From the IMG/VR virus record IMGVR_UViG_3300037510_000657, positions 15,013 through 79,012 of that record: DNA of 64,000 nt. One strand, given 5' to 3'. Below, in pieces: positions 3,416 through 62,960 of this stretch (its first letter is position 1; each line of letters begins with the position of its first letter). The position numbers were made by a program, and so were the translations under genes. The notes beneath the pieces are model-generated. The model worked only from the letters and a program-made list of their open reading frames with translations, made no database searches and was not told where the DNA came from. Source of the DNA: a virus.

Positions 3416-4531
3416 ATGAGCAACGTTCCGGCGAGAGTACTGAACGACCTCTTCAACCAGCGGCTGGACACGTCCGAAGGCCGCGAGAAGGTCGCCGAGC
3501 AGGGTTCGGTCTACATCCGTGACCGTCTGCGCGAGGTCTGCTTCGTGGACAAGATCCTGCCCCCCGACCCGGTCACCCGGGCGGACTGCCAGGTCTCGGT
3601 CAACCACGACACGCTCGTGAAGATCGTCGAGATCGAGCCCAAGAGCCGCGCGATGACCATGTCGTTCCGTGGCCAGCCCACGGCGCGCTTCATCCGCGCT
3701 CCCCGCGTCGAGTGCCCCTTCTACACCATCTCCTCGGAGAAGTTCGAGAAGACGGAGCAGGAGCTCCTGGCGTACCAGATGCCGATCACCAAGGTGATCG
3801 AGGACAACTCGGTCAAGGATCTCCAGGAGATCAAGGACCGCGAGTTCCTCCGCTACATCGAGGCGGCGGTCCAGGCCCTGCAGTCGGATGCGAACGGTGG
3901 CGCGACCGCGCTCCGCGCGTCGACCTACGCGGCGACCGTCAAGAAGTCGGTCATCAAGGGCATCGGCGCCCAGGGCGCGTCGTCGGATGACTTCACGGTC
4001 TACCCGATCCTGCGCCCCGACCTGGTGAACCTCTTCAAGCTCATGGACGGTGAGCGTCTGCGTACGGAGCGGTTCATCATGACCGAGCCGGACTACGACG
4101 ACGTCCTCGCCTGGACCCTCCAGGACATGGGCGACAAGATGCAGTCGGAGACCATGGTCGACGGCTACAAGTACAACACGCTGCTCGGCCGCAAGCTGAT
4201 CCGCACCATCAAGACCGACATCCTGCGCATCGGCAACGTGTACGCGTTCGCCGCGCCGGAGTTCCTCGGCAAGAACTTCGTCCTCAACAACACGAAGTTC
4301 TACATCGACAAGGTGGCGAACCTGATCACCTGGCAGTCGTGGATGGACATCGGCATGATCATCGCGAACATCGCGTCGGTCCGGAAGCTCGAGCTGTACC
4401 CCGGCTCGGTGACCACCTCGGCCACCGACTCGGGCTACGCGGCGAAGCTGCCCGTGGAAGAGGACGAGCTGGGCGCGGAGAACAACAAGGTCGACAGCGG
4501 CCTCAAGTACCCCGACGTCTCGCAGTTCTAA
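3416..4531 (+). CDS. Major capsid protein (probably HK97 fold)
   Basis: 371 aa; strong SD; strongly biased codons; terminator downstream; position after scaffold/decoration-like genes. Confidence 0.7.
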   Translation: MSNVPARVLNDLFNQRLDTSEGREKVAEQGSVYIRDRLREVCFVDKILPPDPVTRADCQVSVNHDTLVKIVEIEPKSRAMTMSFRGQPTARFIRAPRVECPFYTISSEKFEKTEQELLAYQMPITKVIEDNSVKDLQEIKDREFLRYIEAAVQALQSDANGGATALRASTYAATVKKSVIKGIGAQGASSDDFTVYPILRPDLVNLFKLMDGERLRTERFIMTEPDYDDVLAWTLQDMGDKMQSETMVDGYKYNTLLGRKLIRTIKTDILRIGNVYAFAAPEFLGKNFVLNNTKFYIDKVANLITWQSWMDIGMIIANIASVRKLELYPGSVTTSATDSGYAAKLPVEEDELGAENNKVDSGLKYPDVSQF

Positions 4532-4641: not shown

Positions 4642-5220
4642 ATGTGGAAGATCACGAATACTGCGTTCGACCGTAACAAGGAACTCCTGCACCGGCAGGC
4701 GGCCAAGTTCAACCCGTGCCCCATGGTGGGCGGCAAGGTCCTCCGCCGTGGTGACTCGATCACCATCAGCGACGAGGTCTTCGCCACGACCGAGACCTAC
4801 CTGCGCGAGCTGGTGCGTACCGGCGTCATCGTCATGGCTCGTCTGGGCGTCACCGAAGACCCGAGCGGCATCGGCACCTCGCCCAGCGACCCCGACGCCA
4901 AGCACACGGATGGTGGCATCATCATCTCTGCTCCGAAGGCTGCCCACACCGATGGCGGCATCATCGTCACGGAGCCCCTCAAGACCGGCGTCATCATCAC
5001 CGACCCCCTGAAGGTCGAAGCGCCCGCCGGCGATGATGTGGCCCCTGTCGACGAAGTCGCGGCTGTCGAAGCCTCCGTCGAAGAGGTCGCCAAGACCGAG
5101 GAGTTCCTGGCCGATGTCGAAGCCGGCATCAAGGAGCTCGACGAGGGCAAGGGCGTGAGCACGGAAGAGCTCAAGGCGTCGTTCGAGGGCAAGAAGAAGA
5201 ACAAGAAGAACCGGCAGTAG
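4642..5220 (+). CDS. Post-capsid protein with GIGTSPSDP and HTDGGII repeats
   Basis: ATG 4642 after GGAGG; N-terminal domain resembles 5231..5608. Confidence 0.65.
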   Translation: MWKITNTAFDRNKELLHRQAAKFNPCPMVGGKVLRRGDSITISDEVFATTETYLRELVRTGVIVMARLGVTEDPSGIGTSPSDPDAKHTDGGIIISAPKAAHTDGGIIVTEPLKTGVIITDPLKVEAPAGDDVAPVDEVAAVEASVEEVAKTEEFLADVEAGIKELDEGKGVSTEELKASFEGKKKNKKNRQ

Positions 5221-5230
5221 GAGGTGACCC

Positions 5231-5608
5231 ATGATCGTCGTGGTCACCAACATCACTGATGTGCCTGGCGACCGTGGGGCAAGCCCTACGGAGGTCGAGG
5301 TCTACAACAAGCGTCTCGCCCCTGGTGGGACCCTGCGCCTTCCGGCCGAGCTCGTGAACAAGCGAGTCCGGGACCTGGAGAAGCAGGGCCTCGTCGCCAT
5401 CGGAGCGGTGCCGCCCTGGTACGTCCGGGCCAAGACCCGTGGCGGCAGCAGGGCCCTCACTGCGGAAGAGAAGGCCAAGCGCAACGTCACCCCTCCCCCT
5501 CCGCCGGCTCCGCCCGCGAAGGTTCTCCTCCTCGAAGACGTCGTCCCTGCCGTCATCGAAGGCGACGAGTTCGAGCTCAAGGCTTCGAAGAAGCAGAAGA
5601 AGGGGTAG
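5231..5608 (+). CDS. Post-capsid small protein, paralog-like to 4642..5220
   Basis: SD GGAGG; shared pattern TN...L.pG.s..i..e.....lr.L...G. Confidence 0.6.
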   Translation: MIVVVTNITDVPGDRGASPTEVEVYNKRLAPGGTLRLPAELVNKRVRDLEKQGLVAIGAVPPWYVRAKTRGGSRALTAEEKAKRNVTPPPPPAPPAKVLLLEDVVPAVIEGDEFELKASKKQKKG

Positions 5609-33365: not shown

Positions 33366-33432
33366 GTAGGCTCTCCCGATAGGTAGTCAAGAAACTACTT
33401 TGGTTTCTGCACTGCCTGTTGGAGGCCCGCGA

Positions 33433-34917
33433 ATGAGCGACGTTGTATGCCGCCACGCCCGCCAGATCGCAGCGAAGCACACGACCCTCGAGTCGTTGAC
33501 CGCTGCCATCAATGCCCACCACAAGCTGGACCTCTCGCCAGATGCACTGGCCTGCAGGTACCGTCGGTGGCGGAAGGAGCGTCCGAAGGAGCCGATGCTC
33601 AAGGACATCCTCGGTCTCGAGGCTCGCAAGGCCAAGCAGGAGGCAGAGGCTGTCGAAGCTGACCGCCTGCGTCGCTTGCACTCGGACTACGAGAACCTTC
33701 GTCCGGACGACCAGGTCGGTGTCGGCAACGACGGCCGTGTCGATCGCGAGGCCTCTCGGGAGAAGCGCCAGGAGTACTCCGAGAGCATGGGCCGCTTCGC
33801 CAAGGCCCTGCGCAAGACCGGAGGTGTTCCCGACGACATGCCCGAGGACCTGGGTGGGTACGTCGGTCTCCTGGCCGAGCAGGAGCGTCGGTTCGCTAAC
33901 CGCCGCGTGGCTCGTACCGTCTCCATCACGGCCGCCAACGAAGCGCTGCACCTGGCCCAGTTCAAGGACGCGGCCAAGCTCTTCGACGCTCGTATCGTCC
34001 CCAAGGGCTTCGCCACCTCGCTCCCCAAGCCGGGCAAGCGCACGGTCGTGACCCTGCTCTCCGACTGGCACCTGGGCTCGGACCTCTCGGCCGTCGACAA
34101 CCCCATCCCCTTCGGCAACGTGGAAGAGGCTCGCCGTCTCGAGCACGTCGTCCACCACGTCATCGACTACAAGCCCGAGCACCGTGAGGACTCCGAGCTC
34201 CTCGTCCTGCTCAATGGCGACATGATCGACGGCAACCTCCAGCACGACCTCAAGGACGGTGCGCCGCTCATCGAGCAGAAGCTGCGCTTCTGGCACCTGA
34301 GCTCGCTGATGATGGCGGAGTTCGCTCGGTCCTTCAAGCGTGTCCGGGTCGTGCCCAAGCCCGGCAACCACGGTCGAGACAAGCTGCGTCACCCTGGTCG
34401 CGCCACGAGCTCGAAGTGGGATGGCCACGAATGGGAGATGTACTACGCGCTGATGCGCATGTGCTCCGAGCTCAAGAACGTCCAGTGGGAGCTCGACCGC
34501 AAGGCCTGGTCGCTGGTGGACGTCCACGGCTCGAAGATGCTCGTGACCCACGGCGATACGCACGTGAAGATGGCTCACCCGGACAAGGGCGCCGAGAAGA
34601 ACGCCATGCTCCTCGACCGGTACAACGCCAACAAGACCTTCGGAGACGAGTTCCAGGCTGCCTGCTTCGGGCACTGGCACACGCCTCGCCACAAGCCCGG
34701 AACCCCGGACGTGGTGGTCAACGGCATGCTGCAGCCGCCGAACGGTCACTCCATCTCGGAGGGCTACGTGGCCGAGCCCTGCGGCCAGTGGGTGTGGGAG
34801 GCTGTGGAGGGCTTCCCGGTGGGCGATGCCCGCTACATCCGGGTCGGCCCGGACCAGGACAACGACGAACGGCTGGGCAAGGTCCTGACCCCGTTCGAAT
34901 GGCCCAAGGGGTTCTAA
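33433..34917 (+). CDS. Calcineurin-like metallophosphoesterase with N-terminal helical/coiled-coil extension
   Basis: SDWHLG, NGDMIDG, PGNHG, THGD and GHWH motifs; SD GGAGG. Confidence 0.85.
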   Translation: MSDVVCRHARQIAAKHTTLESLTAAINAHHKLDLSPDALACRYRRWRKERPKEPMLKDILGLEARKAKQEAEAVEADRLRRLHSDYENLRPDDQVGVGNDGRVDREASREKRQEYSESMGRFAKALRKTGGVPDDMPEDLGGYVGLLAEQERRFANRRVARTVSITAANEALHLAQFKDAAKLFDARIVPKGFATSLPKPGKRTVVTLLSDWHLGSDLSAVDNPIPFGNVEEARRLEHVVHHVIDYKPEHREDSELLVLLNGDMIDGNLQHDLKDGAPLIEQKLRFWHLSSLMMAEFARSFKRVRVVPKPGNHGRDKLRHPGRATSSKWDGHEWEMYYALMRMCSELKNVQWELDRKAWSLVDVHGSKMLVTHGDTHVKMAHPDKGAEKNAMLLDRYNANKTFGDEFQAACFGHWHTPRHKPGTPDVVVNGMLQPPNGHSISEGYVAEPCGQWVWEAVEGFPVGDARYIRVGPDQDNDERLGKVLTPFEWPKGF

Positions 34918-34918
34918 C

Positions 34919-35362
34919 GTGAAGCTGCAGGAGACCAAGCCAGGCTGCGGGGCGGCCTCTATCTGCAACGCGATCGAGTCACTGGGGGGACATCAGTACC
35001 AGGAGGTCGTGATGACCATCGCGGGAGGGACAGGCCAGGACGGCATCCCGCCCAAGAGCATCATGAAGACCCTGGACACCCTGGGCTACGACGCCGAGCC
35101 TGTCGTCTACCTCGTTCCCGGAAGAGCCGCTGAGGCCCTCCGGCGCTTCCTGCACAAGGGCTTCCCGGTCATCATGTGCGTGGACAACGACGAGCACTGG
35201 GTGTGCGCCATCGGGGTCCTCGGCTCGAGGTTCCTGGTCGCCGACCCGGCCGATGCCGAGCTGGTGCTGTCATACGACCCCGAGAAGCTCACCACTCGCT
35301 GGAAGAACAAGACCAAGAAGCCCTACTACGGGATCGTGGTCAGCCCCAAGGGGAACCCATGA
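34919..35362 (+). CDS. Peptidase C39-like (papain-fold) protein
   Basis: LQETKPGCGAAS (Q/C), EHWV (H), LVADP (D). Confidence 0.7.
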   Translation: MKLQETKPGCGAASICNAIESLGGHQYQEVVMTIAGGTGQDGIPPKSIMKTLDTLGYDAEPVVYLVPGRAAEALRRFLHKGFPVIMCVDNDEHWVCAIGVLGSRFLVADPADAELVLSYDPEKLTTRWKNKTKKPYYGIVVSPKGNP

Positions 35363-35613
35363 TGCGCTACCTCGTCCTGCCGCTCTTCCTGGCCTCTTGC
35401 CTGGGGGATGGCGGTGGCAACCCGCCCTGCGGTGCTCCGGGCCCTAGCTCGCCAACTGGCGGCTCTGGCTGCAAGCCTCCGCCCAAGGAGGCCCTCGACC
35501 CTCTCGTCTCCCTCTCCCAGGAGGAATACGACGCTCTCGAGGGACCGACCGAAGAGGAGATCCAGGAGGCCCTGGACGCCGGCTACCGAGACGCCTTCGG
35601 GCGAGACCGATGA
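35359..35613 (+). CDS. Small lipoprotein
   Basis: MMRYLVLPLFLASC lipobox. Confidence 0.55.
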   Translation: MMRYLVLPLFLASCLGDGGGNPPCGAPGPSSPTGGSGCKPPPKEALDPLVSLSQEEYDALEGPTEEEIQEALDAGYRDAFGRDR

Positions 35614-35819
35614 GCTGCCGCTGCAACCAGCCCCGCAGCCCTCAAGGGCCTCTGTGGGACACGCCAGCCACGAACGACACCGCCTTCTCCAAGCTGAAGG
35701 TCACGGCCGAGGAGGTGAAGGAAGCCCTGGGTAAGATGACCCCAGAAGAGCTGGCCGAGTATAAGCGCAAGATCGAAGAGCGCTGCCGTCCGTACCGCAC
35801 AGTCATGCGATTCCGCTAG
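35610..35819 (+). CDS. Hypothetical protein
   Basis: ATGA coupling. Confidence 0.5.
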   Translation: MSCRCNQPRSPQGPLWDTPATNDTAFSKLKVTAEEVKEALGKMTPEELAEYKRKIEERCRPYRTVMRFR

Positions 35820-61163: not shown

Positions 61164-61220
61164 TCTTCCCTCCTTTGGTGACGAGAAAGAGACACTCGGC
61201 GTGCCTCTCTTCCTACCTTT

Positions 61221-61248
61221 CCTTATCTCGTAGAGGACACACGTATTG
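61221..61248 (-). promoter_or_regulatory. CAA-N16-GnnATAAGG motif copy
   Basis: CAA-N16-GAGATAAGG. Confidence 0.65.
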
Positions 61249-61300
61249 CGCGCTCTGCGAGCTAAGGAAAGAGGGCGGGGGATGGGAGGGGAGAGAGGAA

Positions 61301-61489
61301 CTACTTGGGGACGGAGGGCGAGGTGCCGATGCCAGCGACGAGCAGGTACTCGGCGTACGGATCGCTCGGCGAGGTGCCGATGCCGTTCTCCTGCGGCGGC
61401 GTGAAGACCACGCTACCGTCGCCGCCACGGACCTGCTTGAGGGCCTCGGTCGACAGCTGCTTGCGGGAAAGTGCGATGCGACTCTTCAT
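61301..61489 (-). CDS. Double-glycine-leader peptide precursor (bacteriocin/RiPP/pheromone-like)
   Basis: Leader ...LSTEALKQVRGG; core with GIGTSPS x2; SD GAAAGGAG. Confidence 0.7.
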   Translation of the reverse strand: MKSRIALSRKQLSTEALKQVRGGDGSVVFTPPQENGIGTSPSDPYAEYLLVAGIGTSPSVPK

Positions 61490-61513
61490 GGTGTGACTCC
61501 TTTCAACCGCATG

Positions 61514-61759
61514 CTAGCCAGTGACTTGTGCGTTGACCATCGCACCACCATGCGGCTGGACGTTGTTGATGCAAGACGCCTTCGTGCAGTAGCTCTGCCC
61601 GCAGGTCGTGCACTGGAGGTGGAAGTGATCCACGTGGGCGGGTTGGAAGATGTGGAAGGAGTCCGTGCCCTGCTCCGAGCAGTAGCAGGTTGCGTGGTGC
61701 GCAGGGAACACGTTCCCCTCAGCGTCCTCTTCTTCGAGGAGCTCCCAGCGGAGCGACAT
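61514..61759 (-). CDS. Cys/His-rich small protein
   Basis: SD AGGAGG; CYC...CTTCG. Confidence 0.5.
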   Translation of the reverse strand: MSLRWELLEEEDAEGNVFPAHHATCYCSEQGTDSFHIFQPAHVDHFHLQCTTCGQSYCTKASCINNVQPHGGAMVNAQVTG

Positions 61760-62932: not shown

Positions 62933-62960
62933 CCTTATGCCCGCAGAACCGTTGGCTTTG
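62933..62960 (-). promoter_or_regulatory. CAA-N16-GnnATAAGG motif copy
   Basis: CAA-N16-GGCATAAGG. Confidence 0.65.

Follow-up and report, generated by a model that had tools for sequence, protein, structure and literature searches.

Background

Peptides with a double-glycine leader are textbook bacterial weapons and pheromones, for which the producer supplies an exporter of its own. The classical consensus of these leaders, as found in class II bacteriocins and in ComC, has L at position -12, S/T at -11, E/Q at -8, L at -7, V/I at -4 and G at both -2 and -1, and linkage of the precursor gene to a peptidase-containing ABC exporter (PCAT), or to an ABC exporter in general, is usual but not obligatory. 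The peptide family that we describe here shares with known precursors exported by PCATs (TIGR01847 bacteriocin_sig, ComC PF03047 and the Bacteroidetes GG peptides PF14406) a mostly hydrophilic N-terminal leader, of 22-40 aa, and a short core. It departs from them in that no PCAT, immunity gene or receptor gene lies nearby, in that the core is acidic, rich in Gly/Ser/Thr/Pro and contains a repeated invariant heptapeptide, GIGTSPS, and in that its GG-type members are phage-borne. In contrast with the textbook systems, we are dealing with a solitary precursor gene that moves among unrelated phages, with an acidic core unlike that of a toxin and with a heptapeptide that recurs behind two other export signals.

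Two phage systems offer further comparisons. AimP, the peptide of the arbitrium system, has a Sec-type signal, is encoded beside aimR, the gene of its receptor, and varies from one phage to another. The peptide studied here resembles it in being small, phage-encoded and presumably released from infected cells, whereas its leader is of the GG type, no receptor gene is linked to it and its repeated unit is identical across unrelated phages. The second system is the sublancin cluster of the Bacillus prophage SPbeta, which comprises the precursor gene sunA, the exporter gene sunT, modifying enzymes and the immunity gene sunI (bioRxiv 10.1101/2020.10.01.322628). There too a leader-bearing peptide is encoded by a phage; however, SPbeta has the whole cluster, while at our locus the precursor stands alone, its core is not toxin-like and most of its carriers do not look temperate.

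The peptide gene and its surroundings

The window, that is the whole stretch of DNA that was analysed (64,000 nucleotides), covers bases 15013-79012 of a linear IMG/VR record of 105,876 bp (G000 in Table 1), whose completeness is estimated at about 50%. The record encodes a large terminase, a major capsid protein and tail genes, and its major capsid protein is distant kin of those from phages of about 180 kb.

A first-pass annotation of the window, made from the letters alone, had described a 62-aa ORF with a strong Shine-Dalgarno sequence, a 23-aa leader and a 39-aa core with two GIGTSPS units, and our translation agrees with this description. The ORF is conserved and has the coding quality of a real gene: its GC3 is 0.87 and its GC2 0.51, the neighbouring minus-strand genes have a similar codon-position GC, and upstream sites of the AGGAG type are found also for most of the homologs. 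The gene is the last in a run of five small genes, from 62895 to 61301, and is followed directly on its 3' side by a gene for an AAA ATPase of 857 aa. The run is flanked by two copies of a bipartite motif, CAA-N19-ATAAGGA, one near 62938 and the other near 61226, the latter being a putative promoter for the ATPase gene. In the 64-kb window the motif occurs 12 times on the minus strand and never on the plus strand, and the intergenic RNA fold has z = -4.4. A Cys/His-rich neighbour of 81 aa (61514-61759) was considered as a partner of the peptide and rejected, its adjacency to the peptide gene not being kept elsewhere. Coordinates are collected in Table 1.

Table 1. Features of the peptide locus and of other loci of the same phage discussed in the text. 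Positions refer to the window unless preceded by G000, which refers to the source record.
Feature	Position	Strand	Remarks
Precursor peptide gene, 62 codons (62 aa)	61301..61489	minus	ORF and translation; stop codon at 61301-61303
Double-glycine-type leader, residues 1-23, MKSRIALSRKQLSTEALKQVRGG	61421..61489	minus	predicted cleavage after G23; leader ends in LSTEALKQVRGG
Predicted mature peptide, residues 24-62 (39 aa)	61304..61420	minus	net charge -3
Core motif, copy 1, NGIGTSPS, followed by DP	61364..61387	minus	invariant across aligned members, with several synonymous codons
Core motif, copy 2, GIGTSPS, followed by VPK and stop	61313..61333	minus	
Shine-Dalgarno sequence GAAAGGAG	61497..61504	minus	7 nt 5' of the ATG
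Copy of the bipartite motif CAA-N19-ATAAGGA	61196..61231	minus	just 3' of the peptide gene; candidate promoter (inferred) for the AAA ATPase gene
192-aa ORF	4642..5220	plus	directly 3' of the major capsid gene (3416-4531); GIGTSPSDP at 4867-4893
Stand-alone C39-like protein, 147 aa, possible leader peptidase	34919..35362	plus	Q4, C10, H93 and D109 present
C39 protein, 271 aa, outside the window	G000:1608-2423		PF03412 at 48 bits, cut-off 22

A small family defined by an invariant heptapeptide

A word-indexed search yielded a first relative, P0002, which at 56% identity is also the closest one. The rest of the family was recovered by an exhaustive profile search over 1.84 billion representatives and by a second indexed search with an alignment of 10 members. 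In total about 25 proteins belong to it, of which 16 are GG-type peptides of 44-70 aa; it is a small, undescribed and mostly phage-borne family. Five large proteins returned by the profile search (P0003, P0006, P0013, P0015 and P0016) do not have the motif and were dropped.

All 16 GG-type members are built of the same three parts: a leader, a spacer of variable length and sequence, and one to three (N)GIGTSPS units. Their N-terminal form can be written as MKxRI(V/A)LSKK...L(S/T)xx(E/Q)LxxVxGG, and the heptapeptide, which the first-pass annotation had seen as a repeat in one sequence, is invariant in every aligned member. In a codon alignment of eight members, two to four different codons encode each invariant residue, be it a leader anchor, a glycine of the GG or any position of NGIGTSPS, while the columns of the spacer contain five or six different amino acids. 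Since the conserved residues use several synonymous codons, selection acts on the protein, including both the leader anchors and the core. Conservation stops right after the unit, where the residue following PS can be D, E, V, T, K, M, L or G.

We also looked for the family in other collections. Among cultured phages, Megablast and tblastn searches with the region and the peptide found no relative of the latter, and alignments of two and of five members confirmed none in contigs from viruses, metagenomes and genomes. Viral, genome and metagenome collections were also scanned with degenerate DNA patterns that encode the heptapeptide; no new member was confirmed among the matches listed, which were chance or out-of-frame hits or lay in unrelated proteins such as gp5-like baseplate hubs, tail fibres and FtsA. 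The tail-fibre matches carry GNVGIGTSPSxPLHV and the FtsA matches are limited to some lineages; the bare heptapeptide in these unrelated structural proteins and in FtsA is treated here as convergent or due to chance. The first-pass annotation had pointed to Myxococcota as a place to search, but the family was found in 0 of 401 sampled genomes of this phylum, which lends it no support as the host group. In the literature searched, no paper contains the GIGTSPS motif and none was found on GG-leader peptides of this kind in phages. The novelty lies in the family itself, with its invariant heptapeptide repeat, its acidic core, the swapping of its export signals and the copy of its motif in a phage head module.

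The leader follows the double-glycine consensus

Across the 16 GG-type members, all seven anchor positions of the consensus are conserved: L-12 in 14/16, S/T-11 in 13/16, E/Q-8 in 13/16, L-7 in 15/16, V/I-4 in 15/16, G-2 in 15/16 and G-1 in 16/16. P0002 is the exception at the cleavage site, reading TG-N where the others read GG. The peptide of the window has L-12, S-11, L-7, V-4, G-2 and G-1, with a Glu at -9, so that both it and the family as a whole conform to the GG-type leader that had been claimed for it.

To evaluate the leader separately from the core, an HMM was built from the leaders of 14 other family members, leaving out both the window peptide and P0002. Against the 2041 six-frame ORFs of the 105.9-kb record, the only significant match of this model was the peptide ORF (E 4.7e-8, the next ORF having 0.51). 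As a model that had never included this leader singles out its ORF, the leader is homologous in its own right.

Among curated GG-leader models, none reached its cut-off with the window peptide: the scores were 11.9 bits against 20.4 for ComC, 11.9 against 25 for Bacteroid_pep and 14.2 against 35 for the EntF inducer, while P0002 obtained 13.3 against 15.7 with bacteriocin_sig. Divergent members frequently escape leader profiles of such short length. When ten members were scanned, the sub-threshold matches to peptide leaders fell all in GG-leader families, namely ComC, Bacteroid_pep, lant_leader_L1a (5 of the 10 members), EntF inducer, VP1 pheromone, bacteriocin_sig and leader_Chryseo; the remaining sub-threshold matches were to DUF5841, BppU_IgG and histidinol dehydrogenase. 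We consider it likely that the peptide is exported by means of its GG leader.

The core motif occurs behind three kinds of export signal

Not every member of the family has a GG leader. In P0026, P0027 and P0028 the GIGTSPS core follows a signal peptide with a lipobox Cys, and P0023 has a similar arrangement with a poorer lipobox (FPAC); P0027, from Leptospira perolatii, is annotated as a lipoprotein. In P0012 a Sec signal precedes several units of the GIGTSPS type. The start MK(S/T)RIVLS of the GG-type members is kept in P0023 and P0028. That three different export routes are attached to the same heptapeptide points to GIGTSPS working outside the cytoplasm; this is the strongest evidence that we have for it, and we regard an extracytoplasmic action of the motif as probable.

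The lipoprotein versions are chromosomal genes of bacteria and occur sporadically: of 114 Leptospiraceae genomes, one has the Leptospira gene. Mimicry of a host pheromone was one of the roles proposed in the first-pass annotation, and for this idea it is relevant that in bacteria GIGTSPS is found, sporadically, in a few lipoproteins and secreted proteins.

The predicted mature peptides are anionic in all 16 cases, with net charges from -1 to -4 and GRAVY values that are mostly negative. In about half of the peptides a short hydrophobic strand follows the GG (GGVIVQ or GGIIIQ, and GGGGIIIQSP in P0007). A similarity of this strand to a TonB box was considered and is taken here as a resemblance only, half of the members being without the strand.

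A second copy of the motif beside the capsid gene

The 192-aa ORF that lies next to the major capsid gene contains GIGTSPSDP, and the first-pass annotation was right in reporting a capsid-linked protein with the motif of the peptide. The nine residues are identical in the two proteins, and the DNA that encodes them differs at 3 of 27 positions, all synonymous. Judged on the two sequences, such an identity over nine residues within 106 kb cannot be the product of chance. The ORF has no signal peptide, no homologs in the database searched and no match in Pfam, PHROG or NCBIfam. After GIGTSPSDP it continues with two HTDGGII(I/V) units and then KTGVII, which recall the hydrophobic strand that about half of the peptides have after their GG.

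C39-like proteins of the phage

The stand-alone C39-like protein that had been reported in the window exists, although it is near the threshold: its PF03412 score of 20.9 bits stays just under the cut-off of 22, and the match spans profile positions 6-123 of 133. A stronger C39 protein, of 271 aa, is encoded outside the window. The latter has the Q..C motif, GHYVV and DP, and classifies as a Peptidase C39 protein; the similarity between the two is weak. The closest known proteins are stand-alone or excised C39 leader peptidases such as LahT150 (PDB 6mpz) and other papain-like enzymes of the C39 clan, such as the pseudomurein endoisopeptidase PeiR (PDB 8z4h). The Gln, Cys, His and Asp of these enzymes are present in both phage proteins, of which the 271-aa one matches PF03412 clearly and the 147-aa one near the threshold. 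Neither has a transporter domain, and the solved structure that best matches the 271-aa protein is not a leader peptidase but PeiR, a prophage cell-wall endoisopeptidase (E 9e-6), the LahT leader peptidase domain coming second (E 2.4e-3).

The 147-aa and 271-aa proteins are encoded 26 kb and 74 kb, respectively, from the peptide gene. The gene of the 271-aa protein sits in a packaging-proximal module that is kept, with 58% identity, in a fragment of a related phage (L217); this fragment ends short of the peptide locus. In the available flanks of the other carrier phages no relative of the 271-aa protein was found, and the flanks of up to 20 kb around three of the copies (L081, L085 and L088) yielded no C39 genes. 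The gene of the 147-aa protein is translationally coupled to one of 505 aa that has a weak Fam20C-kinase-like match (E 0.0095). Both C39-like proteins may be counted as candidate leader peptidases. The 147-aa gene is followed by two small ORFs, one of them lipoprotein-like and the other, of 69 aa, weakly matching the PA2779 family.

Carriers and neighbours of the peptide gene

All GG-type members with a readable context are found on phage or phage-like contigs, and these are of different kinds. Two contigs, of 50.7 and 87.6 kb, encode DNA polymerase A, terminase, RuvC and ribonucleotide reductase, and in carriers of this PolA type (50-87 kb) the peptide gene comes after a DUF2201 gene in five contigs. 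Another carrier is a 51-kb contig with GP88, methyltransferases, dCMP deaminase and ThyX, and a further one is a 34-kb contig of a temperate phage with integrase, ERF and HNH; the remaining copies lie in arrays of small unannotated genes. An all-against-all comparison revealed that, apart from distant matches among terminases, deaminases and ThyX, the peptide is the only gene that the groups of carrier phages have in common.

The absence of an exporter or a modifying enzyme next to the gene, noted in the first-pass annotation for this locus, holds in every relative examined. In at least eight contexts that could be read, no ABC exporter or PCAT, radical SAM, ATP-grasp, other modifying enzyme, receptor or immunity-like gene stands beside any copy, and in the contexts compared neither a small membrane protein nor any other neighbour is conserved next to the peptide. 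The source record itself (105.9 kb, about 50% complete) contains no ABC_tran, Radical_SAM or ATP-grasp_4 domain.

A proposed role at the host envelope

From these data it is possible to propose the following mechanism. A C39 cysteine peptidase would recognise the leader and cleave it behind Gly23. Most likely this enzyme would be the N-terminal domain of a host PCAT, the presence of such an exporter in the host being assumed; a host PCAT is the most economical choice for a gene that passes from phage to phage with no partner. Alternatively, in this phage, either of its two stand-alone C39-like proteins may do the cutting. The 39-residue peptide, acidic and probably disordered, would then leave the cytoplasm, and once outside its GIGTSPS units might act as ligands or decoys for a conserved host target in the envelope or the periplasm. 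Such an action would suit the early or middle functions of a phage, for example masking a surface receptor (superinfection exclusion) or perturbing an envelope sensor of the host, and would not involve any membrane-damaging toxicity. Taken as a whole, an exported peptide whose GIGTSPS units are ligands or decoys at the host envelope is an explanation that we favour slightly over its being wrong; the ligand or decoy role in itself, set against a signal or a modified RiPP, is more tentative, and we would call it possible rather than probable.

The capsid-adjacent protein may show the same epitope on the virion. It can be hypothesized, as an unlikely extension, that the two proteins form a shared extracellular ligand system, in which the virion copy would help attachment to a conserved component of the host surface that the exported peptide would saturate, or else that the unit is a "public" signal readable by many phages. 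Saturation, if true, would either exclude superinfecting phages or keep the progeny from sticking to doomed cells.

If the peptide is exported through host pumps, the phage would possess a compact means of presenting a defined ligand at the surface of the infected cell or beyond it, and this, if true, would be a new way of manipulating the host surface, or a cross-phage signal, beside arbitrium and superinfection exclusion. The family is small and sharply defined, and thus open to direct testing with synthetic peptides.

Alternative explanations

The peptide might instead be a RiPP precursor, whose leader would recruit enzymes of the host or of the unsequenced half of the phage and whose GIGTSPS units would be modified, for example by glycosylation, phosphorylation, dehydration or, where Asp or Glu follows, ester cross-links; this is compatible with export. 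Several cores in one precursor are typical of a number of RiPP classes, and the strict invariance of small polar residues would suit a site recognised by an enzyme. The class I lanthipeptide leader model NF038153 matches 5 of 10 members (best E 0.008), the language-model neighbours of the peptides are RiPP and bacteriocin precursors, including those of a type-A lantibiotic, of a graspetide target and of marinostatin I10 (all below 0.9, and so leads only), and the Fam20C-kinase-like gene coupled to the C39-like gene of the window could also be counted in favour. However, modifying enzymes are missing from the neighbourhoods read and from the domains sought in the record, as reported above, and the lipoprotein and Sec versions are without the leader that would recruit an enzyme. 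As to the single classes, a lanthipeptide, class I included, is unlikely because most cores are without the Cys needed for thioether rings, which is found in only 3 of 16, and esters of the microviridin type cannot be general because the residue after PS is not conserved. Overall we find a RiPP precursor rather unlikely.

A second alternative is that the peptide is not exported at all, being a cytoplasmic or virion-associated protein whose N-terminus is merely GG-like, or which is cut inside the cell by a phage C39-like protease as part of a phage-internal process, linked for instance to the capsid-adjacent protein that shares the motif. The gene content of this phage is in agreement with such a scheme: its record has two C39-like proteins and no exporter, the stronger C39 is in the packaging-proximal module, which a related phage keeps too, and GIGTSPSDP is present in a head-module protein without a signal peptide. 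On the other hand, the leader fits the export consensus at seven positions across the family, homologous cores are found behind lipoprotein and Sec signals, and most carriers show no relative of the 271-aa protein in their available DNA. A phage-internal partner is moreover unlikely because the peptide travels alone between unrelated phages, and we judge a peptide that is not exported to be improbable.

The first-pass annotation had also suggested communication of the arbitrium kind, in which the peptide would be released by infected cells, sensed in later infections and would alter their outcome. It is a small peptide, predicted to be exported and encoded among early or middle phage genes, identical units repeated within one precursor would make a signal stronger, a temperate phage with integrase and ERF is among the carriers, and the weak leader matches include the pheromone families ComC, EntF inducer and VP1. 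Nevertheless, no receptor or regulator gene accompanies the peptide in its carriers, among which there are large, apparently lytic phages, and when the unit is part of a membrane-anchored lipoprotein it is not diffusible. A unit that is invariant across unrelated phages cannot provide phage-specific dialects, and a private signal similar to arbitrium is unlikely because it would be read by no linked receptor and the unit is identical in unrelated phages; the probability that we assign to a communication peptide is accordingly low.

A bacteriocin or microcin, the last role that had been suggested, would be an exported toxin killing competitors of the infected or lysogenic cell, and we regard it as very unlikely, because even though the leader is of the type found in class II bacteriocins and microcins, one member is named "bacteriocin-like protein" by JGI and prophage-borne bacteriocin clusters are well documented (bioRxiv 10.1101/2020.10.01.322628), the mature peptides are not cationic or hydrophobic as expected of these classes but anionic in 16 of 16 cases, without the usual amphipathic or hydrophobic stretches, the cores are probably disordered (pLDDT 0.31 in an Atlas model), neither an immunity gene nor a small membrane protein is conserved alongside, and most carriers are unlike lysogens that would profit from it; charge, hydrophilicity and the absent immunity gene make a pore-forming action in particular unlikely.

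Finally, a 42-aa ORF with a Sec signal, found in a Methylomirabilis MAG (L100), may also belong to the family.

Genomic context of the peptide gene

In five phage contigs (L081-L085) carrying the peptide family members P0005/P0009, the peptide gene lies directly downstream of a 492-aa DUF2201_N/DUF2201 gene, which is metallopeptidase-like and VWA-like; a 420-aa gene is found upstream in this arrangement, with a weak AAA_5 match in L081 only. By comparison, the peptide gene of the window is located directly upstream of an AAA ATPase gene, and the resemblance is probably a coincidence. The intergenic RNA that separates the window's peptide gene from its AAA ATPase gene (61164-61300, minus strand) folds at -55.8 kcal/mol (z = -4.4, far stronger than shuffled controls), and two of its hairpins overlap the promoter-like motif CAA-N19-ATAAGGA. 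On the other side of the peptide gene, the Cys/His-rich mini-protein gave no family match, and it is not kept beside the peptide gene in other phages.

C39 and C39-like proteins

Outside the window, the phage record (G000) encodes a 271-aa protein (L077/L003) with a solid Peptidase_C39 domain and 110 uncharacterized N-terminal residues. The module holding it is conserved in L217, a fragment of a related phage (58% identity). Since its top match among solved structures is the prophage pseudomurein endoisopeptidase PeiR, this protein could function as a lytic enzyme or a virion enzyme rather than as a leader peptidase.

The 147-aa C39-like protein belongs to a small operon set among minus-strand genes. 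In NCBIfam, PA2778/PA2779 is described as a gene pair with a C39 peptidase.

Features around the peptide gene and the C39 and C39-like proteins, with a candidate from a cellular contig
Feature	Location	Strand	Remarks
Small operon	window 33400-35819	+	
505-aa ORF	in operon	+	weak Fam20C-kinase-like match, E 0.0095
C39-like protein, 147 aa	in operon	+	translationally coupled to 505-aa ORF
Lipoprotein-like ORF	in operon, near 35359	+	start MMRYLVLPLFLASC
69-aa ORF	in operon	+	weak PA2779-family match, E 0.027
Cys/His-rich mini-protein, 81 aa	window 61514-61759	-	immediately upstream of peptide gene
271-aa protein	G000:1608-2423		solid Peptidase_C39 match
42-aa ORF	L100, near 604	-	Methylomirabilis MAG contig; Sec-type signal MKRIVTVFLLLVSLVVWTGMANA, then immediately GIGTSPSGPSCSRC

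The heptapeptide in other proteins

Among the matches listed, FtsA is the only conserved cellular protein with the exact heptapeptide, GIGTSPSxG(L/I)KKGV being native near its N-terminus in some lineages (Nitrospirota, Methylococcaceae and Thermodesulfovibrionales; bacterial contigs L097, L103, L110 and L187). This occurrence is probably coincidental. The 42-aa ORF of L100 possibly also belongs to the motif family.

Within the window, the capsid-adjacent ORF and the next one (4642-5608, plus strand; second ORF 5231-5608) seem to have a similar short N-terminal domain in common. The likeness, judged by eye only, follows the pattern K-x-L-x-x-G-x-x-[IL]-x-[IL]...E[VL]...G[VL][IV][VA] and suggests that the two are paralogs.
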